Assembly (NCBI RefSeq): GCF_964355755.1
Contig: NC_092670.1
Span: 7,616,201-7,680,200 of the forward strand
Reading direction: 5' to 3'
DNA length: 64,000 bases
DNA from: Antedon mediterranea
Taxonomy: Eukaryota; Animalia; Echinodermata
Every line of letters begins with the position of its first letter. The stretch's first letter is position 1. Positions 1 through 55,319 of this stretch are shown here, piece after piece. Under the pieces are notes generated by a model that ran no database searches, was not told where the DNA came from, and saw nothing but the letters and a program-made list of their open reading frames with translations. Position numbers and translations under genes: made by a program.

Positions 1-66
1 CGTAAGTTTGGTGGTATTATTCATGATTTATCAAACACTTTATTATTATGTATATTATGTATTTAG

Positions 67-4401
<4,335 letters not shown>

Positions 4402-21314: not shown

Positions 21315-21525
21315 GTACTAGTATACCGGGGTAACCCCCTACTTGTCTTGAAAGATGTACCAGGTTCTTTAAAGTGCACATGAGCTAGATGTGTACCTAT
21401 GGTTTGTAGTCCTTATCCGAGAAGACTCGTCCTTTCACCAGAACCATAGAGCGAGTGAGTCTTGAACTCTTGACTATGTTATGGCTACGTAATTACGGTT
21501 TCACTCGGCCACTCACTCACTCGCA
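21315..21525 (-). mobile_element. tRNA-derived SINE copy (same family as 39519-39854)
   Basis: Reverse complement of the TGGCCGAG...GTTCAAG...TCTTCTCGGATAAGGAC...TTTAAAGAACC core; orthologous copy at ~43305-43530. Confidence 0.78.
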
Positions 21526-24500
21526 TACCATTGCAATGAGCTTCAGTTAAATGTTTATTTTATTGTATATTATTTTTACAGAAGAGATAGATCTGAATGG
21601 CAATGATGAAGTGCTTACACCTGTGATGAAACGAAAGTTGTCACGAGATGTAAAAGGATCCGTCAAAGGACGATTAAAGCGTATGGTTTCAAATGTGTCT
21701 GAGGCAGACAGTAAAATATCAGAGGAATTAACAGTAAGTTCAGCTAATATGTTATTGTTTTTGTGGATTGTATGCACATTGATACTGTACATAGAATGGA
21801 CCTGGTTACATTACCCCAACTGTTGATATAATTTCAGTCATTAAGCCTACCCTCTTATAAGGAAATGTAAATGTGTGGGAATATCCTGTATCTCGCATCC
21901 CAACTGGAGTGAAATGCCTACATCAGCTGTGGCATAATAATACAGCAAGAGCAATACAGGGTGGCAATTGTTTCATATTTATGCTTGGGTTGCCACGGTG
22001 GCTGTCAAAAAGGTCCTGGAACTATAACAGGATTTGAACCTTGGATTGGTAACCAAGTTCATCTTCATCGTTGAGTTCCCACAATCATCATGTTGATTAT
22101 CACGGAACTAGTCGTTGTGGTGGCAGTATTCAAAGCTGGTTTTGGGTTTAGTTTTGATTGTTTGCCGGATTATTTCTATTTATAATATAATTCTTAGTTC
22201 TCAACATGTGAAAAAATGGTTTCAAATTTGCTAATGTGTTAATCTTAATCTAAAATATCTTTACCTTTTTTTAACCTTTTATCAGTTTTCAAAAGTTCAA
22301 ATGAACGCATCATCTTAGGCAACTCAAAAGTCTTCTAATAACAATCCTTATCTTACAGAAAACTGAGGAGGATAGTCTTCTTGAGAGTTTCAGCATTAGT
22401 AGAACAATGCAATTGAACTCACCAGAGTACCATTGGATCGTTATTGGTTGTATTGCTGCTGCTATCAATGGAGCGTCACAACCAGCGTTTGCTATTATAT
22501 TTAGTCGCATACTTGAGGTTAGTATTAGCCCTCCTCAGTGAGGTTTCTAATTTTTTTATATATAGATATGATAATAATATTTATTTAACCATCATAAAAT
22601 GTGTTACGAATTTTAGTCATTTAGTCGACATTGTTGACTTATCGTGTTTGGAAATCAAGTTGTTGTGTGCGCCGTCTACTCTGGGTTGGAGCACTGGCTT
22701 TTTAATGGCCTCATGAAATATTCTCACCATCCAACTAATAAACATTCATTATTTGTATATCATATAATGTTTATTTGTCTTTAAGGCTTTTTCATTTCCT
22801 GATGATGAGTTGAAAAGAAGATCAAGGATTTATTGTGGAATGTTTGCCTTGATTGGTGTTGTCTTGTTTGTAGCTAATTTGATCCAGGTATAATATTTTA
22901 ATAACATTTTGTCCTTTTCTTGTTCGTTTTTTTTTTTTTTACCTTATTTAATGAAGGTGATCCATCCAGCAATTGCTGATCATTAGGGACCCTCAGAGGT
23001 TCACATGACCAACATATACACAAGATGCTTGACATAAACAAGGTCTTATTACAAGTCTTTGGGAGTGGAGTTGTAATTTTGTCCTTAGAAAAAATCCTGA
23101 CATGTGACGGGACCCTTGGAGTGGCAGCCAAGCATCATAACCACCAAGCCACAACTCCACTTCCAATAAGATGAAATCCGTTAGAGATGTATTGTCCCCC
23201 AAAAATATGAATAAGTAGAAAAATGACAAAATAAATTGTTAAATTCAGCTGGAAACTCATTGGCTTGCAGCTAATTTGACTATTTTTTGCTTTAAATAAG
23301 AGTTTTTTCAGGTATAACAATTTTTGGTTAACTAGTATATCACATTTATTAAAATGGCATATTAAACAGAAAGGGACAATACATTCTTAAACAAATTGTA
23401 TTCTTTATAAATTTATTAAAAGCGGACATTAATTAAGATGATTTTGTTGCTAAGCATCTCTAAGTTTTTGATGCTATGCACTGTCTTAACATGAGACCTC
23501 ACAACATGTATAGTATGCTGTCCATAGACAGCAAAGAAACATACATTATTGAGCTTATGTCAGCACATAAATGCAAGTCGAACAACTTGTTGACAAGTGC
23601 TCCGAGCAACTGAACGCAACTGACTGCAATTCATACTAATCATTTCCATGTTACTATGCGCTTGCACATGCAGTACTGGTTCCTATAGAACTACAAATCG
23701 TGTTGTATGTGCAGTATGGTATTAACCATGATTAGTTACAATTGGTTACAATGTTGACATGAAAGCGCTCACACATTAGTTCATTTAAATTCTGTTCAGT
23801 TCCATCACTGGCTTGCTTGCAACTATAGTTCCTTTCAGTTGAGTTCTTCCATATTAAACATACTGTACACCCGCTTAAAAGCATAAGGCGGACTATATCC
23901 AACAGATGAATTAATGAACGAACCTTGATTTTTTAACAGGGAGCAGCTTTTGGTAAATCAGGAGAAGAACTTACAAAAAGAGCCCGTAGTATGTCTTTCA
24001 AGGCCATGTTGAGACAGGTAACAATCCGCAAAACTAATGCAGCTCTCGGGGCACTATCAAAATTAATATAGGTAGTGATATGCCCAAATATAGTAGTTAT
24101 CGGACATCATCCTGTCAATGTATGGGCACATCACATTTTTTTGTCACATAAAGTTTTATATTTTAGACATAGCCTAATGTAGATCTTGGGGCCCCATAAA
24201 AATAAATTAAGCAAATACTTGGCAAAATAAATGGAGTAACAGAAGGTGTGCTATTTATTATTTTGATCCATATTGAAAACAAAGATATTGTAATAAAATT
24301 TGTGAAATCTATTATATTGTTTTCTGAAAATCAATAGGCATTGCCTTTAAGCCCAACAATTCAGGATGATATAATTGGGAAGGTAAAAATAGTACATTGA
24401 CATAACACTGTACTTACTATGGTCTAATGGTAGGCCGTCTAGATTTACATTTGAGATTCTTATAAGAATATTTTTACTCTTATTTTAAGTCTCATTAGAA

Positions 24501-31700: not shown

Positions 31701-34554
31701 TTTAAACAGTATAGGGGTTTTTTGTGTGTTTTTTTTTCCAAAAATGATTTTCGATTCCTTCCACTGACAACCTAATTGAATTGTTACTTACATTTGTTTT
31801 TTGTTCTTTTTTCAAAGATTTTGAATAAGTTTAACCTTGAAGTAAATGTAGGGCAAACCGTAGCATTGGTTGGTTGCAGTGGGTGTGGTAAAAGTACAAC
31901 AGTACAGATGATTCAAAGGTTTTATGACCCTAGCCAAGGTATGGTAAGTGGACCTATTGATAACTACTATAACAAGGCACTTAAGCCCGTTTTACACTAG
32001 GTAAATAGAAAACGTTAGTTTATGCATATGTATATGCAAAATTCTGTCATATTTTATTCCGCGACAAATTCTAGTTCCTTGAGTATCGCTTTAGCGAAAT
32101 TAGTATTTTCTATAGCATTTTTTTTTTACTTTTTGTGCAGCCAAAAAATTTCCCATCCAATCAGACCTGATGAAATGAGTTGTCATATGAATCAAAAGGC
32201 TCAGCGATATGTATAATAATATATATATAATATTGCAGCTATTTGCTTGTAGTGGAAAGGGTAGCATGATCTTTTATAGCTCGGCAGTGAAAGTAAAAAA
32301 TGTATATAGCTTGATCTTTTTTGGAGACAGTACATCTTTAACACAGTATATAGCTTGATCTTTTTTGGAAACAGTACATCTTTAACACAGTAAAATATGT
32401 ATTTTTTATTTATTAATTTTTGCAGGTAAAGTTAGATGGTACCGACATTCGAGAGTTGAATGTTAAATGGTTGCGAGAGAGAATTGGAGTAGTTAGTCAA
32501 GAACCTGTGCTTTTTGCTACTTCAATTGCAGAGAACATTCGTTATGGGCGTCTTGACGTTACTGCGGATGAGATTGAAATTGCTGCAATAGAGGCTAACG
32601 CACATGAGTTTATATGCTCTCTACCAGATGTAAGGTTTGGTTTAGGGTTTTATTATGGTAAAAAAAAACATTTTTACAAAACCTAAAATTAAATGTAAAA
32701 TGCCTTTTTACCATTTAGTATTGCAATGCTGTTAAACACTGCTCCACATAAATCAGCAGTTTAAAAATGGTTTTTCAATTTTATGTAAATATATATTTGG
32801 GGCAACTTTTTCTTATTCTCATAGATTGCCTCATTTTTATCATTTCAAATTAATTAATTAAATTTCAGTATATCACCGGGCGGTTTAGAATTAATGTTCT
32901 ATGCCTGATGTGTTTATTGCGTTTTTTCAAACACACATTCTTTATTTTCGCATAAAAGAAATACATATAAAAGAGATTACATTTGTATGAAATTAAGGAT
33001 CTACATCTATTGGCAAAAAAAAATTTTTTTTTTTTTTAAATACACTTTTTTTCTGCCAGTTAAAAAAAATGCCATAAATATACTATATTCACACTTTTTT
33101 GCCTGAATTTTTAGGGTTACAATACATTAGTGGGAAAAAGAGGAGCTCAATTGTCAGGTGGTCAAAAACAGCGAATAGCAATAGCTTGTGCCTTGGTCCG
33201 CAACCCTAAAATCAGCTCTTGATACGGAAAGTGAAAGTATTGTACAAGCAGCTTTTGATAAAGTTAGTATATTAAGTAACTAGCTACCCAGGGCGGGTAT
33301 CAACATTAGTTTAAAGCCTTCTCAGTACACAACACCTGACGCCAGTACAGGTATCTCCCTATACTCACCAACCTCTACCCTTTTCAATAACACCCCATAC
33401 TTTTTTTTAAACAAATTCTTCCCAGGGCAGATTTTAATTCAAGAGAGGCCTGGTTTAAGTACGTTTTAAACTGTGTAAATGAACAGCTGTCATATTATAT
33501 TGGCTGATAATTAAAATATCTAATTTTGATACTGCGGCCCCCCCCCCCTTCTTTCTTCTCTCACCATCCCATCCACAATCAACAAACCTTACTCCCCTGG
33601 ACAGTTAAAATGTAGTAACTTTTCCTAGTACAATTCCAATCATGTTATACTTCTTTACGCCGGTATTTCCGCCCCTTCTCCCCCCAGATACTGGAAGATG
33701 TGTTTAAGACAGTACAACTTATGTTAGCCACCAAATGTAGTACAGTTTCAGTCATGGTGATAGGCCTACATCCCCACCCCAAACTCCCATCCCCTTCCCA
33801 GGGATAATTAAAATACTTTAACATTTTCCTGCCACAATCTTGGTCAATTTGATAGCCTACTACCCCTAGCCTAAGCAAAATCCCCACTATCCCTCAACCC
33901 CAACTCCCACACCCTATTTCGGTTTATTGGTTTCTGAATTATTAAGAAAACACCCCATTAAGTGGACGCTTGACTCCTGAAGGGTTCTACTATATTTTTA
34001 GGCTTTGTTTTTATAGCGTTTGTAAGAAAAAGAGATTATAATGAATATGGAATTTATGTGTATGATATTCAACCTGTAGGTACAAGCAGGGAGGACAACC
34101 ATAGTAATAGCTCATCGTCTGTCCACCATACAGAAGGCAGATCTCATTTGTTCACTGAACGATGGCAATATTGTTGAGATGGGCTCCCATGAAGAATTGA
34201 TGGCCAGAGTCGGGTATATATAGAACATTGGTTGCTTTAACTATGAGAAAATCAGGTGAAAAAGAAACAGAACAAGAATCATCAGAAGAAGGTAAGTGAA
34301 AAATTATCGTCTATAGAGATTGAACTACGCCCTCATCATGCCCGTAAAAAAATCTCAGCTCATAAAGCATTCCATTATCGAGCATCAGATCTGCCAATTG
34401 GAAGCTGTTATCCATTGTTTTTCCAAGGTTGTTTCTATTGTTTTTCTGTACCTATTTAAAAAATCATGTGTCGAAAACATGTCATGTCACTACCCTTTCA
34501 ATTTATATTTATTTGAGTCCGACAATCTCAAATAAGTAAGTAAGTAAGTAAAAG

Positions 34555-34862
34555 CAGTGGCATAACACCCATGAGTGCTCACTGGCTAAACCCGGAGTTT
34601 GAGGGACCCCGGAGCTCAATTATTACGAAGATAGTAAAGCAAACAAATAATAGTAATAGTCTAGACTAGACATTAAAAATAAAAACAAAGTTCATCTCCG
34701 ATACTGTAACACATACTCCAGGTATACACTACTTGCAATCAATCAACAAGTTTTTCTATGATAATAAATATTATTTATAATAAAAAAAAATCATGAAAGA
34801 GCATAAAAACAGCAGAGGGATTGGGGCCCCTTGCGTCCCCCTGGCCCAGAGTTACGCCACTG
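34555..34862. mobile_element. hAT-like MITE, 308 bp
   Basis: TIRs CAGTGGCATAAC / GTTACGCCACTG (1 mismatch); flanks AGTAAAAG / AGGAAAAT resemble a decayed 8-bp TSD. Confidence 0.68.
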
Positions 34863-35859
34863 AGGAAAATATTGTAGATATGTAGGGCCATTTACATGTT
34901 GACAGCTTGTGTGATATAAGGCATTTAGCAAAGAAGCAACAAACCTTAAAACAATATAAAACAAATATTTCTTTAATGTTTAATATATTTAAGTTTCAAA
35001 GTGTAGGCTAAACATAGACAAATCATTTTCAAATTAATATAGATTGTCAGAATGCTCAGTGAACCCTATTTTTCATTTCATTTTCTTAAAGTGTATGTAT
35101 CATATTTATGATTTATTATGAAAATAGGAGAAAAACATTTGATTACATCATCATTAATTGCATATTAAATTAAAACAAATTAATTTAAAAAATCTAACGA
35201 ACTATGACATTTTCTTGGACTTGAAATAACAAACTTAACAGTAACAGAATAGTTATGTACTACAGGTATAAATATACAGATATTTACATAATAATGTTGT
35301 ATAATATACATAGTTTAATTTTATCTTATATGAAATATGAATTAAAAAAAAAATTGTATAAATTAATATTGAAAACAAAAAAGAAACGTAACGCAACATA
35401 AGTAACGCACGAGAAGATAAACGAATATAACGATGAGACATAAAACTAGACACAGGAGTAAGAAAAACATTTTTAATATTTTTGTTTTTGTTTTTTTTTA
35501 TATTCGTATTTTAAAATAATGTATATAATCTGTATATAGGGTATAAATGAATTATAAGTCAAAAAATACTACCGAAAATAATTATATAACATTATTAAAT
35601 GTATCTCCTACAGTACATTTATTAGTTAAGTGTTCACAATTTTAGATGTTGAGAATCATAGAACAAAAAAAAAATACTAGAAAATTATGAAAAAAGGTGG
35701 ATAACAGAAAAGAAATATATTAATGTTCTGATTCCAAGAACAGTAACGTTGCTAAAATTAAAAAAAAAAAAATATATATATATATAGTGCTGTTCCGCCG
35801 TACCACGCCGAGAGTGTTAAAGAGTCGCTATCCAATCGAGTTCGAACAATACCATGAAA

Positions 35860-35931
35860 GCCCCAGTGGTCTAATGGTTAGGACATCTGCATATCAAGCA
35901 GACGGTCCGAGTTCGAGACTCGGTTGGGGCG
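35860..35931 (+). tRNA. tRNA-like cloverleaf with ATC (Asp) anticodon inside a repeat; probably not a translational tRNA
   Basis: Acceptor GCCCCAG/TTGGGGC, D arm GTCT-AATGGTTA-GGAC, anticodon arm TCTGC-ATATCAA-GCAGA, T arm CCGAG-TTCGAGA-CTCGG, G discriminator, TTTTT 3 nt downstream. Confidence 0.6.
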
Positions 35932-36221
35932 ACTTTTTCTCATTCTCACAGATTTCCTCATCTTTATCGTTTCAAATTAATTAATTAAATTCCAGTATAT
36001 CACCGGGCGGTTTAGAATTAATGTTCTTTGCCTGTTGTGTTTATATATAAAAGTATCTCTTCGGAGATCCTGCCTCGTGAATTAAAATACTGAAAGATGA
36101 GGGCGTATCAATTTGATCTCTGTTGTGCGTGCGTACAACTGAGGACTAGTGCTGTTCCGCCGTACCACGCCGAGAGTGTTAAAGAGTCGCTATCCAATCG
36201 AGTTCGAACAATACCATGAAA

Positions 36222-36293
36222 GCCCCAGTGGTCTAATGGTTAGGACATCTGCATATCAAGCAGGCGGTCCGAGTTCGAGTCTCAGTTGGGGCG
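36222..36293 (+). tRNA. Second, slightly decayed tRNA-like (ATC) copy
   Basis: Same sequence with three substitutions, including a T-stem mismatch (CTCAG). Confidence 0.45.
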
Positions 36294-36335
36294 ACTTTTT
36301 CTCATTCTCACAGATTTCCTCATCTTTATCGTTTT

Positions 36336-36378
<43 letters not shown>

Positions 36379-37352
36379 ACCAAACAAAAGTAAGAATAAC
36401 AATGAATAGTTATTATTATTATTAGAAATAATTGTATTAATCTGTTGATGAAATGAAATGAATAAATAGTGGTTAACGCCACAAAAGAGAAAAAAAAATG
36501 GATTGTATATACTTTGACAGTTCAACATTTTTAAAAATGTTTAAAGATGTCATCATAATCTATCTGCACCAAAGTGGTTACTGCATAGTAAATACACGGA
36601 AGATTCTTTCTTTAAGTTTTATTCAGGTGTGTATATGTCTCGGTGGTCGCGTCTATAGCACTCAAGGTATTTATAATGAAATCTAGAGAAACTTATATCT
36701 TTATTATTATTTAACAAGGATGGTTTATGACATATACACGAAGGAATCTTTGATCGGTTTTTTTTTGTAAGTGGCTCGATGTGCAGTGATACCAGCTATT
36801 GTATTTGTGCTACGATCTATCTTTCATCTTGATATCTTTTTTTTGTTTTTTGTTTTGTTTCTTTATTTCTATTCACAACAAAAAAACATAAACATACATA
36901 AATATTCAATACAAAAATGAAAGAATGGAAAGGGGGAATCTCTGAAGCACAGCTTATAAGTAGAAACCCCCTGTTACAAAACAGTATATATATTTTACTT
37001 GATTTGAAACACAACAACATTAATCAAATATTTCTTAGTCTTTTTAAACCACCAATCCAGTTTCATCTTGTGATGCGAATTCTGAAAATACAAGACAGTA
37101 TGAATAAAGTATAAAAATATACTTTTATAATAGGCTTAAATCGTAGCAGGGAAGACTAGTATCTACAGTAAATCTTTAAAAGTATGTCATGTATGCATCA
37201 TCTTTATAGAGAAGAGGCAGTATTCTGCCTTAGGAGGGTGCATGTTAACTCTGTGTACACCTAACCTAATGCCTTACCAGGCATATAAGATATTAATATC
37301 CATTTAAATTTGTCCTACCTGTGCATTATCTTCTAAATTTTGACAGAGCTTT

Positions 37353-40303
37353 TTACAGCAGTATGAACAATAGTTTTTGAAGTACTTTGTAAATAAATGA
37401 TCGTAGAATCTTGCGTAGTATCATTATTGAAGCCTGGCCTTGTTGGGCCGGGGTAAAAACTATGTCCATAAGCATGTTAGTGATCAAATTGGAAAACATG
37501 AATAGCACCGTATTCATCAACATCCTGAAACAAAAACAAAGAAGATTAATACCTTGAAACAATGGTACCCGTGGTGAATATAGTGTTGAGTGCATTTTTT
37601 CATTTGATTGGACGACTGTGGGTCACATGATATTAGATAAATGTACTATATATAACACTACTCGCAAGAGTAATACAATTTCATTTTGTGTGTTCACTTT
37701 TGGTACACAGTGATTGAGCAAAAACTTGTGCAACAAGAGGATAGGCTGTTGTTTACTTAAACAAATAATGAATGGTTTTTATTCGTACAATGGTACAAAT
37801 AATTGGTACAAATAATTTCATTCAGTGAAAGATAAAAAAACTCATGAAATTATTTGTACAATCCCACTCTATTATTATTTGTATACTATCAATGTAAATA
37901 TATAAGATATTTGATTTTAAAAAAAAAGTTAACCTTAGCCAGTCAGGCACAATTCCATCTTCATTTGGCTGATCAATTATCACCTGTGCAAAAAATATAA
38001 AGGTATATTTAATTTTCCACAAAGTGTATCCAACTAAATGTTAAGAGTTGCACTATATGGAGACAGGCAATGTATCTTTGATCTATTATGCTGTTGCATG
38101 CCCCATTTCCTTTAGTAATTATCTATGGCTTGACTATAAACATCTTCAATTTGTAATTGAATGAAGTCCAGTTGCAATCGCTAGATAACTCTCCAGATTC
38201 TAAAAAGTTAAAAATGTAAGATATATCTCGAGCTCGCCTTTGTTATACAGTATGAAGAATCATGTATCCTCATTCAATCTTTCCATTGTAGGCCTAATTT
38301 TTAATAGAATTTTTCTCACATTTAGATTGAGTATCAAGAAGAAATTTGCCCTACCGATGCATATCTTTCCTGCAAACTGTAAACACCTTTCTTCAAGAGA
38401 TTTGCAATACATTGTTGAAGCAGATGAGCAAATATTTCTCTTATAGTTGTTGGGGATGTAAGGAAAAAGTCTATTGCCATATGTGATATCCATCTAGCAA
38501 CGATACGGTAAAGAAACTGGTTTACCAAGAACCTGAAAAGAAAGAAAATTAATAATTTGAAACTACCTAAAGTAATTGTACCTGGTGAATCTAGCATTAT
38601 AGATTTTGTTTGTTGTTTTTTGTATTAGCTTAGCTTGAAACTGCAAAGTATCAAGAGAGTTGCTTTCCCATTATTATATTTTTATTCTTCACATATGAAA
38701 ACTACAATCATTGTGCACATGAAAATGGAGCATAGTATAAAAAAGCATGTTTACCTTATCCACTGAGGCGCAACCCTATGTTCATTTGGTTGATCACCAC
38801 GATTCGCCTGTGTGCGGAGATTTACAAATGTTAATCACAGAAGCCATCACATAGGCTACTATCTAGCATATGAGCGAGACACAATTGTAGGCAAAGGTTT
38901 TTCAGTTTTAAATGAATGTATATGTTGTCCTGATCACATACAACAAATCTGTCATCCACCACCTTCATATGCAAATGAGCATAAGTATGCAAATTAGCTA
39001 TAAAACCCATATTTTCACAATATCTCCTAAACTAATAATTCATTTATTACAATTTTTATGGCAAACCCTATGTTTTCATACCCAATGAACACATTTCAGT
39101 GATCAATACCATATAACAGGTGAAAACACAATTTATGTCACGCTTGAGTGATATTTGTCCAAAATTATCATTTTTTCCTGTAAATTTTGGTTCAGATAAC
39201 CGGCTGGAAAAATCTTTGCGTACAATTTTGTTCAGTTCACCATATTTTTGAGCTAGATACAGTAGCCTACACAGTGCTAATATATTAATTTAAATGTATT
39301 AAATGCATACATATTCATAAGCCAAGTCAAAGTGAAAAAAAGTACCTATCTATTAAAGACAATTAAATTGTTGACCTTTTGTAAAAATAATACTTTAAAA
39401 AAGTGGTGGCGCCAGCGGGGTAGGGTTTATTTTTACACAAAACAAGTAACTTACAGGATATTGTCGTGTTTCATTTGGTAAGTGGGTTGCTTCACCTGAT
39501 GACAAGATAAAACAAAAGTGAGTTAGTGAGTGAGTGTGGCCGAGCGGTTAGGACAGTGGGACCGAAATCCATAGCCATAATATTGTCAAGGGTTCGAGGC
39601 TCACTCGCCCCATGGTTCTGGTGGTAGAACAAGTCTTCTCGGATAAGGACTATAAACCGTAGGTCCAGTGTACATCTGGCTCATGTGCACTTTAAAGAAC
39701 CTAGTACATCTTTCGAGACGAGTAGGGGGTAACCCCAGTGTACTACTTCATTCATACACACACACTGTCGTGGACAGATGTATTGGCGCCGTAGTTGGCT
39801 GTCGATGTCACAATGGGACCATTGGTGGAGCAGTAGCCTTCAACTATAAAGTTTGACATTCGTAAAAGACATCAATGATGAAAGACTCTAAAAAAACATT
39901 TCTAGTCTAACCTTCCTTTGAAGAATAGGCGAGGGGAGAGTATGCTCTATGTGGGAACATGAATCCGTGATGAGTCCAGAAAATTCTAAATTGGGTGAAG
40001 CGTTGGTATAAAGATGAAAATACTGTGTAAACATTCAGAATAAATTGTATGTAAGCTAGAAAGATGCACACCAGTTCACTACTAATTGGGACTAGCTAGT
40101 TACATTTCCTTTCATTGGGACGAATGTACCAGAATGATTCAACTATTTATTTGCTAAAACGTAATATTAAAATAGTAGTATGGCTAAAAAAGGAAACCAG
40201 AACACCGTGGTAATCGCCTATTCTTTACAAATGGATGGTAGCATTTAGTCTATAGAATTTAATATTATTTTACGATACAATTCATCTAACCTGATCGTTC
40301 CAT
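37353..40303 (-). CDS. Nested antisense gene of unknown family, copy C version (predicted 205 aa, 7 coding exons)
   Basis: Minus-strand GT-AG exons 40303-40291, 40022-39912, 39495-39455, 38807-38755, 38532-38355, 37983-37934, 37524-37353 total 618 nt = 205 codons + TAA, all phases compatible. Protein: MERSVFSSLYQRFTQFRIFWTHHGFMFPHRAYSPLAYSSKEGEATHLPNETRQYPANRGDQPNEHRVAPQWIRFLVNQFLYRIVARWISHMAIDFFLTSPTTIREIFAHLLQQCIANLLKKGVYSLQERYASVIIDQPNEDGIVPDWLRMLMNTVLFMFSNLITNMLMDIVFTPAQQGQASIMILRKILRSFIYKVLQKLLFILL. Confidence 0.75.
39519..39854 (+). mobile_element. tRNA-derived SINE with Deu/Nin-like core, copy-C-specific insertion
   Basis: A box TGGCCGAGCGG (39537), B box GGGTTCGAGGC (~39590), core TCTTCTCGGATAAGGACTATAAACCGTAGGTCC...TTTAAAGAACC. 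Absent at the orthologous site in B (~16985). Confidence 0.82.
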
Positions 40304-40859
40304 ATTTGTATAGATACCAAGCGATTTAAATCAAATTGTTAATTTTGTTTGTGAGTAAATTTTCCGATCCGCAAAAAATTTATTTGACATTTGACCTCTT
40401 ATAGACAGTAAATATTCTAAGCTACGCGCCCTCTATAATAATTGAAAATTATTTATACACGACATGGTTTAAACTTACACGCAACAGGTATGATAAACAA
40501 TCATTCACAATTGTCAAATGTGTTACTGTTATAAACGTAATAAAAGATGTTATTATAGAATATTCAACTAGAAAAAGTTTTTATTAGAAATCGGACCTCA
40601 CTTTCTATAATGATGCCATTACGTACGTTACTTTACGTATTTGCAAAATACATTTTTTTCCCTAAGAAATTGTTTTCTTTTAATAGTAACTCATCTGAAC
40701 CAAGTTTTGTATATTTCAACAATACAATAACTTTTCAAACTAAAAGTATAAAATATTTGATATAACACCATTAAGACATTAAAGGATTGTAAAAGGGAAA
40801 CTAAAGTGCATGGTTAACTGTGTCTGAGGCAGAGAGTAGAATAATATATGAGAATTATC

Positions 40860-41238
40860 CTATGGGGTATAGTTGTCCTGAGGGATAGTTATCCTAGGGG
40901 TAGTTGTCCTATGGGTAGTTTTCCTAGGGGGTAGTTGTCCTGGGGTAATTGTCCTGAGGGTAGTTGTCCTGAGGGATAGTTATCCTAGGGGTAGTTGTCC
41001 TATGGGTAGTTTTCCTAGGGGGTAGTTGTCCTGGGGGTAATTGTCCTGAGGGTAGTTGTCCTGAGGGGTAGTTATCCTAGGGGTAGTTGTCCTATGGGTA
41101 GTTTTCCTAGGGGGTAGTTGTCCTGGGGGTAATTGTCCTGAGGGTAGTTGTCCTGAGGGGTAGTTGTCCAAGGAGGGTAATTGTCCTAGGGGATAGTTTT
41201 GCAGGTGGTAGTTGCCCAGAGGGTAGTTGTCTGGATAC
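40860..41238. repeat. G-rich ~15-bp minisatellite with ~91-bp higher-order repeat
   Basis: AGTTGTCCTGAGGG(A/G)TAGTTATCCTAGGGG... restarts at ~40871, ~40962 and ~41054. Confidence 0.92.
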
Positions 41239-43304
41239 AAATATTAAATATGAGTATGCATAAAGGGGCCCAGCAGCCCTGGGCCTTTGAAAAAAAATAA
41301 ATAAAAAACCACCCTGTTCTCTGCCAGAAATCTTACCTATTTGACATGTAGTTACTGTACTATTTTTAATACTATTTTTAAACTATCACCAACCAGGTAC
41401 GATAAACAATTTCATTCACTATTGTCCACTCTTTTATAGCTTCTGTTTTACACCTTCTAACTCCATTTATTATAGTTATTCAACTAAAAAAAGTTGATTG
41501 TTCTTAATAATACACCTAATGAACTATGATATTAGGAAAACAGGATGGTCCAATGATCCAATGCCATATTACGTTCCTTTCTCCTTATACTGTATTCATA
41601 CTCATATTTCTGAAATTGTGTTTTGGACTTGATTATAAAACTGAAGAATTCCTAATATTCCTAAAGTTAAAAGAAATTGAAAGTTGAAGTATCACAATAG
41701 TTACATAAAGAATGTAAAGAACATATAGATATAAAAGCGTCAAGTTTTTTCTATTAATCTAAAAGAAGTGATATTATACAGACAGTGGAACAAATAAAAC
41801 ATTTTTTTACTAGATTGCATTGAACATTTTTTACAGACCAATAAAATAATTTTCAGTAATAATATCTAAAAAAAGATTGATCGTAAATTATATCAAAGTG
41901 TTAATAAATGTCATAATTAATCTACTACAAATACTGAATGAAGTACAGCAAAGTAAGGCCTATATACCTTGTAGTTGGAATTAAACATATAATGAAACCA
42001 AATTAGGGCATGGGCCAAAAAAATAAATAAATTGGGCCAATTAGAAAGTTTTACCGTACTTACTTTATACTTTACACTTTGTTGTTGGACTTGTTGGTTG
42101 TTTGCATTCATCATGCCCATGTGGCTCTCTGAAAAATTTCTTTCACTATACTCTTCATGGTGTAAAACAGTTCTCTTTACGTGAATCATTTGCTTTGATC
42201 CTCACATTACAATGGCCAAGTACCTGATTTAGACTCCAATAAATACTTCGCTATGATATTTATGGTTGATAGCACACTACTGTATAGGTTAAAGCCCTCT
42301 ATGATATTTCAGTTATAAGAAAGACACAGAATAAATTCTAAAGCGCCTGGTGATATACTGAAAATTAATTCATTTCTTTATATATATTTATAATTATTCT
42401 GGGTTTTATCATTCTTTACTTCATTGGTGTTGTTCATTCAAAAGAATTTATAACTGAAATATAATCTATCTTAAAAAATGAGAAATATCGGATCAATTGA
42501 AATACTCGAAAGTTGATAAATTTCTATTTTATCCAATATTTAAATGGGATTCATTTACATTTTTTAGATGATTTACATTTAAAAGAAAATTTAAAGAGGA
42601 AACTCTTAGAAAAGCTGAATCAATAAACAAATTAAAAATAGGATTAATTATTTAATGTTGATAATGATACTGTTTAATTATTTACTTAAATACCAATATT
42701 GAACATGAACACTGTTCAAAAGAAAAAGCATAGCGTTTCAATAATAAATGTAATAGGAGAAAAATATAGGAGAGGTGTGAATTCAGGAAGAAGTGGAAAA
42801 ATACAACTTAAAAATTTGCATCTGAAACTTTTAGCAATTGTTGGAAAGGAAGAAGGAAAGAAAGAAAAAAAGTTTTATTTGTGAAACAGAAGCAGCTGCT
42901 GACTGGATAAAAATCATGCCACCTAATTGTTCACTTAACTTGATTAAAAAAAATTATGTTTTTTAATGTTTGTGCAGTTAAACAATAAACAAACAAAAAC
43001 AAAATATACTACTAATGTTTACATATTTTTATTTAATACCTAATAGGAACTATAAACTAAACAAATATGGCAATAAGTCTCTAGAGAATATTCACATTAA
43101 ATGACTTTATCTACAAATTTTCCCCATCTGATTGTAGCATTGCAGCCCTAAACCATAGATTCACAAACAGATGGCCCTATTAAAATGCAGGAAAATATCT
43201 TCTTTTACTCATCACATATTTTTATTATTTGTATTATTTATTTATTTATACTGGGTTACCTCTTCAGTCAAAGACTGGTCTCTCAGAGAGCACAGTTATG
43301 ATCA

Positions 43305-43530
43305 GTGGCTATTGGGTAACCCCCACTTGTCTTAAAAGATGTACAAGGTTCTTTAAAAGTGCACATGCGCTAGATGTGTACACGGGACCTACGGTGTATA
43401 ATCCTTATCCGAGAAGACTCGTTCTTCCACCAGAACCATGGAGCAAGTGAGCCTTGAACCCTTGTCAGCGTTATGGCTACGCAATTATGCTTCCACTATC
43501 ATAACCGCTCGGCCACTCACTCACTCACTC
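43305..43530 (-). mobile_element. tRNA-derived SINE copy
   Basis: Reverse complement of the 39519 element, including TGGCCGAGCGG and GGGTTCAAGGC boxes. Confidence 0.8.
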
Positions 43531-46225
43531 ACATATAATCGCAATGAGCTTCAGTTAAATGTTTATTTTATTTGTATATTATTTTTACAGAAGAGATAGA
43601 TCTGAATGGCAATGATGAAGTGCTTACACCTGTGATGAAGCGGAAGTTGTCACGAGATGTAAAAGGATCCGTCAAAGGACGATTAAAGCGTATGGTTTCA
43701 AATGTGTCTGAAGCAGAAAGTAAAATATCAGAGGAATTAACAGTGAGTTCAGCTAATATGTTATTGTTTTTTGTGAATTTTATTCACACTGATACTGTAC
43801 ATAAAATGTACCTGGTTACACTACCCCAACTGTTGATGTAATGTCAGTCATTAGGCCTACCCTCTTAATAAAAAATGCAAATGTGTGGGAATATCCTCTG
43901 TCTCGCATCCCAACTGGAGTGAAATGCCCACATCAGCTGTGGTCGATGGGCATAACAATACAGCAAGAGCAATACAGGATGGGAAGCCTTGGCTATTGTT
44001 CCATATTTGAAGCTTTGGTTGTCACAGTGTCTGTCAAAAAGGTCCTGGAACTATAACAGGATTTGAACCTTGGATTGGGAACCAAGTTCATCTTCGTCGT
44101 TATGAGTTCTCACAATCATGATGTTGATTATCACGGAACTAGTCGTTGTGGTGGCAGTATTCACAGCTGGTTTTGGGTTTAGTTTTGATTGTTTGCCGGA
44201 TTATTTCTGTTTATAATATAATTCTTAGTTCTCAACATGTGAAAAAATGCTTTCAAATTTGCTAATGTGTTAATCTTAATCTAAAATATCTTTACCCTTT
44301 TTTAACCTTTTATCAGTTTTCAAAAGTTCAAATGAACGCATCATCTTAGGCAACTCAAAAGTCTTCTAATAACAATCCTTATCTTACAGAAAACTGAGGA
44401 AGATAATCTCCTTGAGAGTTTCAGCATTAGTAGAACAATGCAATTGAACTCCGCAGAGTATCATTGGATCGTCATTGGTTGTATTGCTGCTGCTATCAAT
44501 GGAGCGTCACAACCAGCGTTTGCTATTATATTTAGTCGCATACTTGAGGTTAGTATTAGCCCTCCTCAGTGAGGTTTCTAATTTTTTTCTATATAGATAT
44601 GATAATAATATTTATTTAACCATCATAAAATGTGTTACGAATTTTAGTCATTTAGTCGACATTGTTGACTTATCGTGTTTGGAAATCAAGTTGTTGTGTG
44701 CGCCGTCTACTCTGGGTCGGAGCACTGGCTTTTTAATGGCCTCATGAAATATTCTCACCATCCAACTAATAAACATTCATTATTTGTATATCATATAATG
44801 TTTATTTGTCTTTAAGGCTTTTTCATTTCCTGATGATGAGTTGAAAAGAAGATCAAGGATTTATTGTGGAATGTTTGCCTTGATTGGTGTTGTCTTGTTT
44901 GTAGCTAATTTGATCCAGGTATAATATTTTAATAACATTTTGTCCTTTTCTTGTTCGTTTTTTTTTTTACCTTATTTAATGAAGGTGATCCATCCAGCAA
45001 TTGCTGATCATTAGGGACCCTCAGAGGTTCACATGACCAACATACTGTATACACAAGATGCTTGACATAAACAAGGTCTTATTACAAGTCTTTGGAGTGG
45101 AGTTGTAATATTGTCCTTAGAAAAAATCCTGACATGTGACGGGACCCTTGGAGTTGCAGCCAAGCATCATAACCACCAAGCCACAACTCCACTTCCAATA
45201 AGATGAAATCCTTTAGAGATGTATTGTCCCCCAAAAATATGAATAAGTAATTTTGTAACTTTAATATAGTTATTCTCTTTCGTAGAAAAATGACAAAATA
45301 AATTGTTAAATTCAGCTGGAAACTCATTGGCTTGCAGCTAATTTGACTATTTTTTGCTTTAAATAAGAGTTTTTTCAGGTATAACAATTTTTGGTTAACT
45401 AGTATATCACATTTATTAAAATGGCATATTCAACAGAAAGGGACAATACATTCTTAAACAAATTGTATTTTTTATAAATTTATTGAAAGCAGACATTAAT
45501 TAAGATGATTTTGTTGCTAAGTATGATAAACCTAAGCTCTAAGTTTTTGATGCTATGCACTGTCTTAACATGAGACCTCACAACATATAGTATGCTGTCC
45601 ATAGACAGCAAAGAAACATACATTATTGAGCTTATGTCAGCACATAAATGCAAGTCGAACAACTTGTTGACAAGTGCTCCGAGCAACTGAACGCAACTGA
45701 CTGCAATTCATACTAATCATTTCCATGTTACTATGCGCTTGCACATGCAGTACTGGTTCCTATAGAACTACAAATCGTGTTGTATGTGCAGTATGGTATT
45801 AACCATGATTAGTTACAATTGGTTACAATGTTGACATGAAAGCGCTCACACATTAGTTCATTTAAATTCTGTTCAGTTCCATCACTGGCTTGCTTGCAAC
45901 CATAGAGTTCCTTTCAGTTGAGTTCTTCCATATGAAACATACACCCGCTTAAAAGCATAAGGCGGACTATATCCAACAGATGAATTAATGAACGAACCTT
46001 GATTTTTTAACAGGGAGCAGCTTTTGGTAAATCAGGAGAAGAACTTACAAAAAGAGCCCGTAGTATGTCTTTCAAGGCCATGTTGAGACAGGTAACAATC
46101 CGCAAAAGTAATGCAGCTCTCAGGGCACTATCAAAATTAATATAGGTAGTGATATGCCCAAATATAGTAGTTATAGGACATCATCCTGTCAATGTATGGG
46201 CACATCACATTTTTTTGTCACATAA

Positions 46226-48665: not shown

Positions 48666-48871
48666 GAACATCTACACCTTACAGACACTTCTCCAGAAGC
48701 AGACTAACACACTTCACACCTCACCGACAGCATCACTGATCCTCCGTTCCTTATCTATACTTATAGTTGTATATTGTACTGAAGTATTATACTGAATAAA
48801 CAATATGTGTTACGACAGTCAAGCGAGTAAGAGTCTTCATTAGTACCTCAACAACGCAACATTATATTACA
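48666..48871 (+). repeat. 5' LTR remnant (R-U5-like portion only)
   Basis: 48666-48761 equals 56666-56761 (96 bp, 1 mismatch), then AATAAA (~48795) and the ...TTATATTACA end. Confidence 0.85.
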
Positions 48872-49023
48872 TGGTGGAAGACCCAAATTTCATAAGGAAC
48901 AGAGTGAGAAAACAGAATAACAAGAAAACAAGAAATAAACACTTAACAAGACACGAAGACGAAGACGAAGACAAAAATAACCATATTTGTTTGAAAGGAG
49001 AAAACCAGAAATTTACTTTTAAA

Positions 49024-49231
49024 CAAAAGACAAACTGAAATTATATTTGAATGAGATCGAGACAAGCAGAAATTTTATCAAATTATTACCATTGGATGAA
49101 GACAAAGAAGATAATCGAGGAAGACACAAAAGACAAGCTGAAATTATATATTTGAATGAGATCGAGACAAGCAGAAATTTTATCAAATTATAACCATTGG
49201 ATAAAGACAAAGAAGATAATCGAGGAAGACC
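49024..49231 (+). repeat. ~103-bp tandem duplication in the retrotransposon leader
   Basis: CAAAAGACAA(A/G)CTGAAATTATA...GATAATCGAGGAAGAC occurs twice. Confidence 0.85.
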
Positions 49232-49620
49232 CAAGAAGAATCAAAACAGAAGCAAGCGGACAAGAACTGTTTCGTTTGGACACTTTCAACTTCACGCCGT
49301 TTTTTTTCGATCGTTTTTTTTATAATTTACTTTTTTTGAACATTGATGAACACCTTTCGCATTTTTTTTTGAATTCGTTGTTTGAAAAGTTGAACATTGA
49401 TGAGCACCTTTAACATTTCTTTAATTCGTTGTTTGAACATTTAAACATTTCTGAACACTTTTTGCATTCCTTTAATTCATTTTTAATTGGATCCGAAGCA
49501 TTTGGGGTAAGTCAAAACCATTTTGATTTTTGATTTGTAACCTTGATTGAAAAGTGAGAGTTTACATATATATACACTAAATTGTTTTTGATATATGATT
49601 AATAATTAATATTATAAAGT

Positions 49621-50580
49621 ATGGTCGACGTTGTTGATAACGAAGTAATTTTAAATGAGCCTGTCAATCCACACTCCGTGCCCCACCTAAGACAAACCGA
49701 TTTCCTTCCCAAAAGATATGACGGTTCCATAACCGATCACGACCAATGTAGTGCACACTACTTATCGTTTACCGACTACCTTGAGGCCCACACTTTAGAA
49801 AACCCTGTAAACAATGCCCAATTAATTAATGTAATAAGTATTTTCAAACGTAGGCTTCAGGGCCAAGCTAGACTCTGGATTGAGGGAAAGCAGTTCGATT
49901 CACTGGAATCCTTAAAAACCCAATTCATCAACAGGTTTAGTAAAAACAAATCAATCTATGCGCACATAAGAGAATACGATTCAATTACTTACACCACTGG
50001 CGACAACGCCGAAAAGCACTTAACCAAAATCAAACAAGCCGCAGACAGAATTGGATACGCTGACCAGCAGATAAAGAATAAATTTATTTCGACCCTTCCA
50101 CCAAAATGTAGAGCAGCTGTAGCCATGTCCACCCCAATCGATGCCACTATTGACAATATCGTAAACAGCACACAAAATTACCTTGACCTTTCCGTAGATG
50201 ATGCCACACGGGAAGTTTCATTCAATATCAATAAGGAAACAGATAATAGTCTCGAATCGCTCCAACATGAGATAAATTCTCTCAAGTTAGACATGGCCAC
50301 AACAAAACGATCCCTTAATGATGATACTCGACGCTCACGTTCCCCCACCCGAAATTATACCCCAAGACGAAACCGAAGCCCAAGCCCATACAAACCCCGA
50401 TTCCAGACCCCACCGACCCCAAGATATAGACAACCTCCCCCAACCTGTTATTACTGCGGGAAACCAGGCCACATAGCAAGGCATTGCCGACAACAAAACC
50501 GTTCTTACGGAAATTATCCCCCGCCATACCCATACCAACAGTCAAACAATTACTACCCTAGCCACCAGCAGGATTTTTAA
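49621..50580 (+). CDS. gag: Gag polyprotein (capsid-like + CCHC zinc knuckle)
   Basis: 319-aa ORF; LQGQARLW capsid-like motif, RS/P-rich basic region, CYYCGKPGHIARHC knuckle. Confidence 0.92.
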   Translation: MVDVVDNEVILNEPVNPHSVPHLRQTDFLPKRYDGSITDHDQCSAHYLSFTDYLEAHTLENPVNNAQLINVISIFKRRLQGQARLWIEGKQFDSLESLKTQFINRFSKNKSIYAHIREYDSITYTTGDNAEKHLTKIKQAADRIGYADQQIKNKFISTLPPKCRAAVAMSTPIDATIDNIVNSTQNYLDLSVDDATREVSFNINKETDNSLESLQHEINSLKLDMATTKRSLNDDTRRSRSPTRNYTPRRNRSPSPYKPRFQTPPTPRYRQPPPTCYYCGKPGHIARHCRQQNRSYGNYPPPYPYQQSNNYYPSHQQDF

Positions 50581-53500
50581 AAAGGGGACTAGATGCCGCC
50601 TATAATCTGGCCCCCCATACTAAATACGACAATTTTAAGGCAAAATACTTAGGGAATTCAGATAATATTGATTTGTTACTTAACGACAGAAATTACGTTA
50701 AAGGAAATTTACCAGATGGTAGAAATGTTTTAACTTTATTTGACAGTGGTTCAACTAGAACTATAATCTCACAATCGTACGTTAATTCCTCACTTTATTT
50801 ATCGCGTCTAAAGCCAATTAAAGTGAACACAACTAAATTTCGATTAGGCAACGGTGACTTCTTATACGCCAACCACTTAGTGCAATTCGAATTATTTATC
50901 CAAGCACACACATTCAAAATTTCAGCGTTAATCGTTAAAAATTTGACAGGTATTGACCTGATACTTGGAACCGAAACATTGTCTGAACTCGACGGTACTT
51001 TAAATTTTAAGGAAAACACCTTTCGCATTAGACCAAAGATTTTTAGCTTTCGTCCTGTACACAAGATTTTTCTTAAACCCGGTGATACTAGAACAGTTAA
51101 ATTAAAAGGAAGGGTTCCCGCCTTTGTACGCAATTCTGATGTTGTTCTACATGCAACCACCAATATTTCAAAACTTTGTCCATCAGATATGTTAGTAAAA
51201 TTACACAGAGGAGAAACCAACATTGATATCACTAACAACACAAACAGAAACGTATCTCTAAATACACATCAACCTATCGCGAGCCTTCACTTAACCAACC
51301 TTGTAACAGTTACTAACGACCTACCAATTGATAGAATAAAGTTGACCAATGACAACGCAAACAAGTACCCACATTTAGAACGTACAGACCCATTGCTATC
51401 TTTAACCAGGGAAGAGTTTTAACTCTTCCCTGCTTTAACCGAGGAAGAAATAATCAGAAAACAAGTTGATTTAACAGACAGCGTTTTAACACATAGAGAA
51501 AAAGAAGATTTGTATAAAACATTACAACAAAACAGAAACGCATTTTCACTATATGGTGAACTATCTAGCTGCCCAAACTTCAAAGCTGACATACACCTCT
51601 CTAACGATGAACCATTTTTTATTCGACCATACTTCGCGACAGACAAAGACAAACATGTTATTGAGGCCGAATTGAACAAATTAGTCAAACTAGGAATCTT
51701 AGCAGTAGGACACCAATCGTATACTTCCCCTGTCCTTCTTGTTTCAAAGAAAAATTCAAAAGATAAAAGAGTTGTCACAGACTTTCGCTATCTAAATTCC
51801 AGGATAAAACGTATTAATCACCCATTCCCATTATTAGCCGAAACTCTGAAAACAATAGGTAACGCTAATGCAAAGATTCTTAGCGTAATTGATTTGAAAT
51901 CAGCGTTCCACTGTGTACCATTAGCCGAACATGCCCAACAATACACAGGTATAGCTTCATATCATGGTGGAAAGCATTATTATTATAAGAGATTAGCACA
52001 AGGATTAAACGTTTCGCCAGGTATATTTCAAGCAAAGATTGACGAAATTTTAAATGAAATCCCAAATTCTAGAGAATTCTGTATCGCCCATCACGATGAT
52101 ATTATTTTATTTAGCCAAGACAAATTTGCTCATAAGCAGCACCTTGTTTCCGTTTTACAAGCCCTACAATTAAATGGTTTTAGAATTTGCCCAAAGAAAT
52201 GTAAGTTATTCAAGAATAAAGTGCAATATATGGGACACACCATCCTGATTAATTCTTCAGGACACGCATGTATCACACCATTAGGCGACAGGTGTGCAGC
52301 TATCCGAAATTTGCCAGTCCCACGAACCCATAAAGAAACTAAACGATTTATTGGTGCAGTAAATTATGTATCTCATTTTTTCCCTCAAATACAATCAATT
52401 TTACAGCCGTTACACACACTCGCAAGCAAACGCCGAAAATTTTGTTGGTCTACTGAACACCAGAAAGCATTTGACGAAATTAAACAATTAATGGTTAAAC
52501 CACCAACTCTTCAAATGCCTAGAAAAGAAGGTAGATTTACGCTATATAGCGACACTTCAAGAACCGCAACAGGTTCATATTTAACACAAACAGTAAACGA
52601 TAAAGAACACATAATAGGTTATTATTCCAAAATCTTACCACAAGCCTGTCAACGATATAGCGTCACAGAATTAGAGTTATTTGGACTTTACATTAACGTT
52701 TCAGCATTTCGACATTTACTAAAGGGTTGCGAATTTGATGCATTCGTAGACCACTCAGCAATTGTACAAATTTGGAATTCAAAAGATCAGCCATGTACAC
52801 CCCGTTTACAGAAACTAATATTACAATTGTCCGGATACATTTTCCAAATTGGTTATAAGAAAGGAACTGAATTAGTTTTAGCAGATTTTCTCTCCCGAGC
52901 CCCTCGTGACGACGATTCCGAAATTGATCAAGTTGTACCCATTGCATTTAATATTACAGAGACCGAATCTCTTAACCCGATTACAAACACATCCACTAGC
53001 AGACCAGTAACAAGGTCATACGCCAAGAAAATGGGAATAAATATACCTGACCTACATAAACCCAAACCAGTACAAACGCCCGTCATTAATCAAAACCCAG
53101 TGACAACAAACACGCGACCTACACCTCAACCTTCCACTACACCACAGATAATCACGAGACAACAAACAAACGCACATCGATCACCGCCTATCGTAACGCC
53201 ACCTATCGTAACGCCACCCCCAATACGTAATGTAAACATTCGACAACCTCCAGAGGAACGACTAGTAGACAAAAATAAGCTAAGCAAAGATACTACACAT
53301 CGAAATGTACCAGTTGATTTGTATACATCGCCCAAACCACTAGTACCAAACATAACTGAATTTAAGTCAGCACACATCCCAAAACAACAAGACTTAGATA
53401 GATTAATGGATGTTATTCAAAGAAAGATAATTAGAGATTATAACCTCCCAGTAGATGTTAAACAATTACGTGTTGAACAAGAAACTTCACCATTTTTTAA

Positions 53501-55319
53501 GCCAGTTTACGATTATTTAGCTCATGATATCCTTCCAGCTGATAAGAAAGCAGCTCGTGCAGTTCAGAATAAGTCAGAGCAGTACATATTGTGCAACGGT
53601 TTACTATTCCGTTTATTTTTCCAAGATAAAGGTGGAGAATTTGTATTGCAATTATCTGTTCCTGAAAACTTAGCCGAGACCGTTATTTCTCAGTATCACG
53701 ACAATTTGTTAAGTAGCCACCAAGGTACGATGCGTACTTACCTTACTATTAGGAAATTATTTTACATGCCCCTTATGTTCGAGAAAGTCAACAATTATAC
53801 CCAAGCGTGTCTTAGATGTCAACAATTTCGTCCCAAAACCGATAAATTACGTCCTTTACACGATCGAGTACCAGCAACCTACCGTCCCTTTCATACACTC
53901 AGTCTAGATTTTAAGAGTATGCCAACTTCACCTTCAGGTTTTAAACATATTATGGTAGTATGTGATGAGATAACTAGATTTTTGATTTGTGTACCTTTGA
54001 AATCCATTGATGCCGAAACAATTTGCGAAGCACTAATTCAAAAGGTCATCAGTATTTTTGGACCCCCATCTCGTCTTATTTCAGATGCAGCAACCTCCCT
54101 TACAGGAAAATTATTAACACTATTATGTAACACCCTTAATATTGATAGGAAAATCATCAGCGTCCACAATCACGGTAGTTTACAAGTTGAACGTCATATC
54201 CGCACCGTATCGGACCTGTTAAAGGTCAACCTTAACCAATTCGGAATAGATTGGGTTAGATTTGTATCAACAACATGTTATGCTTATAACTCGTTTTCAT
54301 CCCCACATCTAGGAAACCACTCCCCTTACGAATTAGTTTTTGGCCGCCAACCTCCAAGTTTGACCTCATTAGCATTTAACCCTATTTCAGGATTGTCTCA
54401 TTCCTATGAAGAATACTTTGAACATCTCAAGAAGAAATTTCAAAACATTTCACAGACAATGCTACAATTACAGCGAACACAACAAAACGTCCAAAACTCG
54501 AAAATTTCCCAACGCTTAGAAAAAAGTCCAATTTACTCAGTAGGACAACTCGTATATTTATACAAGCCAACATCATCATCACTAACGGCAAATTCAAAGA
54601 AAATCGCCGCAGAATGGGTCGGACCATTAGTAATTCATGAAGTACTAGACAGAACACACTACATCCTAGCGACGATTAAAGGAGAAATACTTCGCGACGT
54701 ATTCAATTATAACAGACTGAAACCTTGTTTTATGAGAACGCCTAAAGAACGCAAAAATTTTACACATCTACAAAAACTTAAACAATTGTTGAATGAACCC
54801 ACCGATGATAATAACGATAAAATCCAAAACACCATTAATGTAGTAAATGACGAAATCAATGTTGAATTTGTAGACGAACATGATAGGACACCCGCCCAAT
54901 TGCAATCAGATACCCTTACACATCCAACTAAGATAGAACCCCTTAACTTGCAACCTTACATTGACTGTGTAGAGAATAACATGGGATTAGCAGCCCCATT
55001 CCAAATGAAAGAAGAACAAATTAAGGAACAAACTAATCTAATTATGACAGCACCTAATGATTCAAATATGACATTAAACCGAGGTAGATTTAAAGCAGGA
55101 CAGTTCCAAGTTTTAGTTTCGTATTCTAAACCCACTTCAGCCAAACGCAACACCGATAAAACAAAACACGAATCTAATGATCGCAAATTTTGGTGGAATA
55201 TTGACAGATATAACGATACAGATAAATTGATTAAAGAGATCATTAATGATAAACAGATACCGATAAGTGGATCGCCAAACCGATTCATAAAACGTTTGTA
55301 TAATGCAACAAGTTACTGA
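50571..55319 (+). CDS. pol: Pol polyprotein (protease, RT, RNase H, integrase) in the -1 frame to gag; one internal stop at 51420-51422
   Basis: Protease LFDSGS; RT DFRYLN, DLKSAF, HHDD, YMGH; RNase H SDTS, ELE, VDH, ADFLSR; integrase H-H-C-C and D(LDF)-D(SDA)-E(VER), plus GPY/F-like WVGP. ORFs 50673-51422 and 51510-55319 share one frame. Confidence 0.92.

Follow-up and report, generated by a model that had tools for sequence, protein, structure and literature searches.

In the primate red/green opsins, adjacent paralogues have homogenised introns and flanks and are divergent in particular exons, silent sites included, and an exon divergence that exceeds intron divergence in converting duplicates is, in the available portion of the source, the signature of this pair (PMC3924837). 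The accessible parts of two accounts also state that insertions alone can halt conversion (PMC3924837, PMC3728101). Another described arrangement is that of the host/nested pairs, in which, in the part of the source available here, a whole gene lies within one long intron of its host, on the opposite strand, and is less conserved than that host (PMC11694760). The SpTransformer (Sp185/333) genes provide a third case, this time from the sea urchin, an echinoderm, given that they form a clade-restricted and clustered family of mosaic modules with helical, membrane-associated products, and, in the available portion of the description, comprise two exons and encode a hydrophobic leader along with regions rich in Gly and in His and a central RGD (PMC5491942).

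The locus described here, located in a window of 64,000 nucleotides (the whole stretch of DNA analysed) from the crinoid Antedon mediterranea, resembles each of these systems and departs from each. As in the opsins, conversion between paralogues was found together with a peak of divergence in the exons above the introns, though a non-coding patch reaches 0.24 as well; on the other hand, here an orphan gene lies antisense in a dead host and has undergone shuffling of its modules and loss of an intron, and the comparison is of a single species. As in the host/nested pairs, a whole and less conserved gene occupies one long intron on the opposite strand, but in Antedon the host copies are pseudogenes, and each unit contains no complete gene other than the nested one. 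While the likeness to SpTransformer includes the echinoderm setting, the clustering, the modules, and the helices, the nested gene has 7-9 exons, no leader, hydrophobic helices, and no Gly- or His-rich regions, with a lone RGD in exon 4 of copy C that is absent from copy B. Identity with SpTransformer was rejected on exon number, leader, and composition, and no sequence link was found. The evolutionary pattern is of a known kind, whereas neither the protein nor an arrangement in which the host is dead and the nested orphan alive was found in the literature searched; this literature (main texts, few of them from subscription journals) contained no description of the locus.

Comparison of the window with itself gave the 3' end of one ABCB1 copy (copy A), followed by two tandem units, B and C:

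1 to 6406, plus strand: 3' end of ABCB1 copy A, exons 67-4398, without the 15-nt deletion common to B and C
6407 to 31632 (start and end approximate), plus strand: duplication unit B, a 5'-truncated broken ABCB1 with exons 6594-29623 and the host intron 9006-21581
31633 to 61552, plus strand: duplication unit C, a 5'-truncated broken ABCB1 with exons 31815-59552 and the host intron ~34291-43590
~40780 to 40850 in C and 17860-17924 in B, plus strand: relic of the ABCB1 linker exon, with 83% identity to the true exon

Units B and C both start within the first nucleotide-binding domain (NBD1), at approximately residue 274 of the Anneissia ABCB1, and they therefore have neither a promoter nor the first membrane domain. 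A frameshifting deletion in an NBD1 exon and the 15-nt deletion in a TMD2 exon are common to both, to which unit B adds one stop, while unit C has additional frameshifts and is interrupted by an 8-kb insertion that carries a gag-like ORF. The initial annotation had considered both hosts to be broken, and the truncation, the two common deletions, the stop in B, and the frameshifts in C bear this out: judged by these lesions, the hosts are dead as transporters. The ABCB exons of the window are 99-100% identical to the A. mediterranea RefSeq ABCB1-like fragments XP_071951624.1 and XP_071951635.1, which map to unit B, and 76% identical to those of Anneissia japonica. While the host exons match crinoid ABCB1/P-glycoprotein (XP_071951624.1, XP_071951635.1, XP_033100770.1), the nested protein is unrelated to it, and an origin of the nested gene from ABCB1 sequence was rejected, with an hhalign probability of 0.2% and no tblastn match at the nested exons.

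Other elements were also observed in the units. The insertion in unit C (48666-56761, ~8 kb) contains a 320-aa gag-like ORF with a zinc knuckle (49618-50577), fragmented pol-like frames, and repeated 96-nt flanks (48666-48761 and 56666-56761), and is likely, from its structure, to be an LTR retrotransposon. A very high-copy short element, likely a SINE, is present at 39518-39850, 21313-21505, and 43314-43532, and the first codons of the RefSeq model XP_071951635.1 come from the SINE-like copy at 21389. The linker-exon relic lies ~550 nt upstream of the nested ATG, adjoining a 15-16-bp tandem repeat, and would point to an older rearrangement of the host intron.

In units B and C alike, the nested gene lies wholly within one host intron, the one that separates the last NBD1 exon from the linker exon. 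The minus-strand model of copy C has seven exons and six GT-AG introns with matching phases (618 nt, 205 aa), and that of copy B has seven exons, also with GT-AG introns and matching phases (696 nt, 231 aa). Both ORFs, and the ATG exon conserved between them, had been proposed in the initial annotation and were reproduced exactly, although the model was found to miss a conserved 39-nt PNE exon candidate and the 3' exons. The parts of the gene are as follows:

40303-40291, minus strand: copy C exon 1 (ATG, phase-1 donor), conserved in B at 17311-17299
40142-40104, minus strand: copy C exon 1b candidate, 39 nt, phase 1-1, PN(E/G) motif; in B at 17151-17113, with AG/GT conserved
40022-39912, minus strand: copy C exon 2, 111 nt, phase 1-1, amphipathic helix, in C only
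39495-39455, minus strand: copy C exon 3, PNE linker; in B at 16963-16923
38807-38755, minus strand: copy C exon 4, PNE linker of module 1; in B at 11827-11778
38532-38355, minus strand: copy C exon 5, helix-kink-helix of module 1; in B at 10798-10624, with 55% amino acid identity
37983-37934, minus strand: copy C exon 6, PNE linker of module 2 (in B, part of a fusion with exon 7)
37524-37319, minus strand: copy C exon 7, helical module 2, coding to 37353 (stop 37355-37353), donor after 37319
37081-36995, minus strand: copy C exon 8 candidate, 28 codons in a phase-0 frame that B conserves from 9850 downwards
~36868-36721, minus strand: copy C putative terminal 3' UTR exon, matched by run X1, its acceptor placed by an AG and a long pyrimidine tract before 36868
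17311 to 9755, minus strand: copy B nested gene, exons 17311-17299, 16963-16923, 11827-11778, 11520-11416, 11159-11055, 10798-10624, and 10253-10047

Inclusion of the exon 1b candidate, whose acceptor is weak in copy C, results in proteins of 218 aa (C) and 244 aa (B). Exon 2 is the least certain exon of copy C, being without homology to the other modules and dispensable for the frame. At the other end, the nested gene runs on 3' of its stop, with the donor after 37319, the exon candidate at 37081, and the acceptor at ~36868. Copies B and C both terminate in exon 7, through different lesions; the stop of copy C is aligned with a lysine codon of the sister exon 5, and a 2-nt shift comes next, so that its C-terminus may be a shortened version. 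The exon 8 candidate looks coding when B is compared with C (pS 0.31 and pN 0.08, 4.5 silent changes of 10, p 0.014-0.057), and may represent a longer or alternative C-terminus that exists now or existed formerly. The stop of copy C is 34 nt ahead of the junction at the end of exon 7, and, under the usual 50-55 nt rule, a stop that near to the last junction would escape decay.

The introns and the 3' flank have features of their own. Intron 6 of copy C (37575-37930) contains a high-copy repeat, and the same intron is missing from copy B, whose intron 3 (12100-16400) is swollen by decayed transposon pieces (LINE-like frames at ~12578-13230, a cysteine-rich transposase-like piece at ~14614-14919) and by a tandem array with a 75-82-bp period. 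A 195-nt duplication immediately beyond the 3' end of nested gene C contains two tRNA-Asp-like copies (35860-35931 and 36222-36293), probably pseudogenes, whose anticodon, ATC, is unusual.

The reading frame is maintained across ~96 B-C substitutions, and when the observed substitutions were placed at random, the ATG and the open frame survived in 0.9% of 20,000 trials. All five length differences in the coding sequence are divisible by three, as are only 10 of 27 gaps in the introns (p=0.015, a value that depends on the alignment). A second haplotype of copy C, seen in the eight X3 pieces listed, which cover exons other than exon 3, has 10 differences over 2897 nt, six of which fall within 616 coding bases (p=0.009); five of these six are replacements, and none is frame-breaking. 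In exon 7, three of the four alternate bases are the copy B base, which suggests some conversion, or an ancestral state, inside this exon.

Of five sequencing runs considered, none of them on record as RNA, four (X1, X2, X3, and X5) were mapped on the copy C region 37340-40651 and its neighbourhood. The nature of X1 as RNA is a guess, and X2, X3, and X5, with coverage of introns as well as exons, behave as DNA. In X1, letters 1-101 of a contig of 262 nt (depth 6.35) correspond to 37419-37319, where the match ends exactly at the donor, and letters 149-259 of an X1 contig of equal length, depth, and strand match 36831-36721. These are likely to be one and the same contig, which skips 487 nt from the GT donor predicted by the homology with exon 5; it has 47 unplaced letters against the 37 expected from the nearest good acceptor, the A-rich stretch 36832-36870 being masked, and the mapping reported no joint between its two matches. 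In the three DNA-like runs, the sequence continues without a break over 37319. Another X1 contig is unspliced over the exon-7 acceptor (37402-37574), and exons 1-6 and 8 are uncovered in X1, which is not evidence of silence. Splicing is supported at the last junction only, by one low-depth contig of the presumed RNA run. In addition, X2, X3, and X5 carry one sample code, yet the haplotype of gene C in X3 and X5 differs from that in X2, and X1, from another study, has the same exon 7 bases as X3 and X5.

Given these results, the nested gene is very likely to be transcribed, spliced, and protein-coding, and it is very probably the sole complete, apparently selected content of units B and C. It might instead specify a non-coding antisense RNA, or a regulator of the neighbouring ABCB1, of which the long ORF would be a relic; the X1 reads are from the 3' end, and no annotated protein was found that contains the nested exons, even though ABCB fragments of the same locus are annotated. 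This is very improbable, however, when set against the conservation of codons and frame in both copies.

The protein is modular. Exons 4 and 5, and exons 6 and 7, form a duplicated module, in which a PNE linker (phase 0 to 2) is followed by a helical exon (phase 2 to 0), and the PNE motif is retained in seven of the eight linker exons. The similarity of linker exons 4 and 6 at the DNA level (z 13) and that of helical exons 5 and 7 (z 7) were both unmatched in 1000 shuffles, and the similarity of exons 5 and 7 at the protein level is weak. A 361-bp tandem repeat in copy B accounts for two extra hybrid exons, identical and 105 nt long (11520-11416 and 11159-11055), in each of which the first helix of exon 5 meets the end of exon 4 at a short word present in both; in addition, exons 6 and 7 of copy B are fused (10253-10047), with intron 6 absent precisely at the junction predicted from C. 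The modular build first noticed in the exons is thereby traced to duplication of the DNA, and the hydrophobic and amphipathic helices noticed with it are supported by hydropathy and by moments of 0.4-0.5.

Five 19-residue windows of the copy B protein have a hydropathy of 1.95-2.14, while the best such window of copy C reaches 1.59, this protein being more amphipathic than that of B; the hydropathy scan gave no hydrophobic N-terminal window in either. A structure model of the 59 residues of the exon 5 module is a helix-kink-helix (pLDDT 71), the predicted fold of the fused copy B exon is one long helix, and the prediction of a complex between modules 1 and 2 scored 0.01, which gives no answer on an interface. 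The product would be a signal-less protein made in the cytosol, which binds or enters membranes through one to five helices spaced by PNE linkers. Binding to membranes is rather probable on these predictions, with B appearing to be multi-pass and C more surface-bound. Small, signal-less intracellular effectors with amphipathic or hydrophobic helices and fast evolution are known in APOL, IFITM/CD225, ninjurin, and the four-helix bundle of MLKL; these serve only as an analogy for how the nested protein may work, and its single exons have no Pfam match to any of them.

The homology queries were single exons of 28-101 aa, for which a blank is a weak result. Exon 5, searched against 5.8 billion proteins (longer lengths only), gave none from three candidates, a four-module profile gave none from 3805, and the single match of the profile among 1.84 billion representatives was a tandem-repeat artefact with no significant stretch. 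In Pfam, no match above the cut-off was obtained with 6 + 5 single-exon pieces, the APOL, IFITM, ninjurin, caveolin, and Ctr families included, and the PDB sequences gave a weak match to a CTR1 helix peptide (E 0.019), without Pfam support. The best value in the ESM Atlas was 0.82, below a useful level, metagenome contigs yielded no relative (0 of 204 pattern matches), Foldseek returned no match for the exon 5 model, and the VIA structure comparison of this model reached at best Z 6.2, with generic helices. A suggested resemblance to caveolin and AKAP helices found no support. The early impression that the protein belongs to no recognised family persists through these single-exon protein, Pfam, PDB, and structure searches, in which no homologue or informative fold was found, and its description as lineage-specific is supported in the sense of lineage-restricted, within the reach of the same queries.

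The divergence between the copies is uneven. In a 3' segment of ABCB, it is 0.55% for A-B, 2.2% for A-C, and 2.1% for B-C, and in another ABCB segment it is 2.5%, 2.7%, and 1.4%, respectively, a switch of the nearest copy that likely reflects a mosaic of conversion or crossover among the paralogues. Between B and C, 28 of the 2087 sites in the 12 pseudo-exons of ABCB compared are different, as are 93 of 1341 sites in the introns of the nested gene (6.9%), and the helical exons have a pN of 0.23 and a pS of 0.33, i.e., a divergence of ~25%, so that the order is ABCB (1-2%), nested introns (7%), and helical exons (25%). The values for exons 5 and 7 are 0.24-0.30, against 0.069 in the introns, and the linker exons have a pS of 0.14 and a pN of 0.08, with silent changes at 5 of 37 sites versus 22 of 68 in the helical exons (p=0.04). 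The contrast is repeated inside copy B, where 11 of 81 sites distinguish the helix of the hybrid exon from that of exon 5, while between the copies of the flanking intron the differences number 8 in 254 sites (p=0.001). The dN/dS is 0.64 overall and 0.66 in the helices, neither above 1 nor significantly below it (p 0.10 and 0.16), and 13 of 45 helical replacements cross the boundary between polar and hydrophobic residues.

Divergence peaks may also arise without exons, because the non-coding patch 41786-42360 (~19700-20300 in B) attains 0.17-0.24, near the value of the helical exons. Of 30 non-coding windows of 135 columns, three are at 0.22-0.24 (41929-42360) and none reaches 0.24, the pS of the helical exons (22 of 68) is barely above 0.23 (p=0.05), and the 100 nt before the ATG have a divergence of 0.22. 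A hidden ORF shared within the patch was sought and rejected, none being found; the patch contains a conserved 40-nt stretch that ends in a minus-strand GTAAGT near 42020, which could be an upstream untranslated exon. Decay of CpG, which involves 4 of 79 changes, and GC-biased conversion, given the balance of weak and strong changes, were both rejected as causes of the exon divergence.

Gene conversion likely homogenises the dead transporter around the nested gene, and selection likely keeps the helical exons of B and C different, in a product that would bind cell membranes through repeated hydrophobic or amphipathic helices. On balance, the helical exons probably resist conversion because difference is favoured, and, if so, what is selected in each unit would be the nested gene. 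The initial annotation had supposed that the copy number or diversity of this cargo, rather than the transporter, accounts for the persistence of the duplicates; this view is strengthened by the lack of any other complete gene in either unit, and by helical exons that stay divergent while the ABCB1 remnants are homogenised, and this favours the divergence of the copies but not their number. The duplicates could also persist neutrally. The whole reading, that of two divergent orphan-gene copies, antisense in dead ABCB1, kept distinct by selection, membrane-binding, and most likely engaged in an immune-type conflict, has about an even chance of being correct. A conflict role is proposed because change is confined to the helices, the modules are shuffled, and two very different versions are retained; as a weak inference, conflict with pathogens or between self and non-self is quite possible, if short of an even chance, some other role is a lesser possibility, and one in gametes is rather unlikely.

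The same gene build could be that of a gamete or gonad protein, diversified by reproductive conflict rather than immunity. Gamete proteins of marine spawners evolve fast, and the sequence evidence fits equally; secreted gamete-recognition proteins have a leader, however, and the nested protein has no hydrophobic one at its N-terminus. Mammalian nested genes are less conserved than their hosts, and many pairs are co-expressed in the testis, in the available portion of the source (PMC11694760), which also agrees with this unlikely alternative. It is distinctly unlikely that the copies are old duplicates of a once functional gene, under relaxed selection or in decay, in which conversion is patchy, blocked by insertions, and the units persist neutrally. 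The dN/dS of the helices, the equally divergent non-coding patch, the differing lesions in the tails of exon 7, the many insertions in the block, and the unspliced X1 contig are all as would be expected from decay, but the frame survives the substitutions and the five in-frame indels, the PNE motif persists in the linker exons, the second haplotype of C is intact, and the excess of exon over intron divergence recurs inside B, whereas exons that were merely constrained should convert more readily than introns.

The divergence might also have arisen through conversion by cDNA, in which the exons are rewritten from reverse-transcribed mRNA, raising silent divergence in the exons alone and removing introns precisely. 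The exact loss of intron 6 in B and the high pS of the helical exons and exon 8, with 0.22 in the 100 nt before the ATG, would fit such a process. However, the linker exons are not raised, exon 5 retains both of its introns, and no third copy of at least 88% on exons 5 or 7 was found among the mapped reads, and this explanation is barely credible.

Returning to the reading of two copies kept distinct by selection, an extension that is unlikely to hold in full is that B and C are the first members of a crinoid protein family new to science, membrane-active and serving in recognition or killing (immune or self/non-self). Its old, selected variants would be reshuffled by crossing-over between linker and helix modules, with the dead ABCB1 copies acting as near-identical recombination arms on either flank that drive copy number and pairing. 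To the authors' knowledge, almost no clade-specific genes are known for immunity or self-recognition in crinoids. The locus offers a natural experiment, given that a dead gene homogenised to 1-2% and a live nested gene with helical exons 25% apart are found in one unit. If this is confirmed, annotated expansions of transporters can be pseudogene shells around another, selected gene, and the nested gene provides a testable candidate for a conflict gene and, possibly, a new family of membrane-helix proteins.
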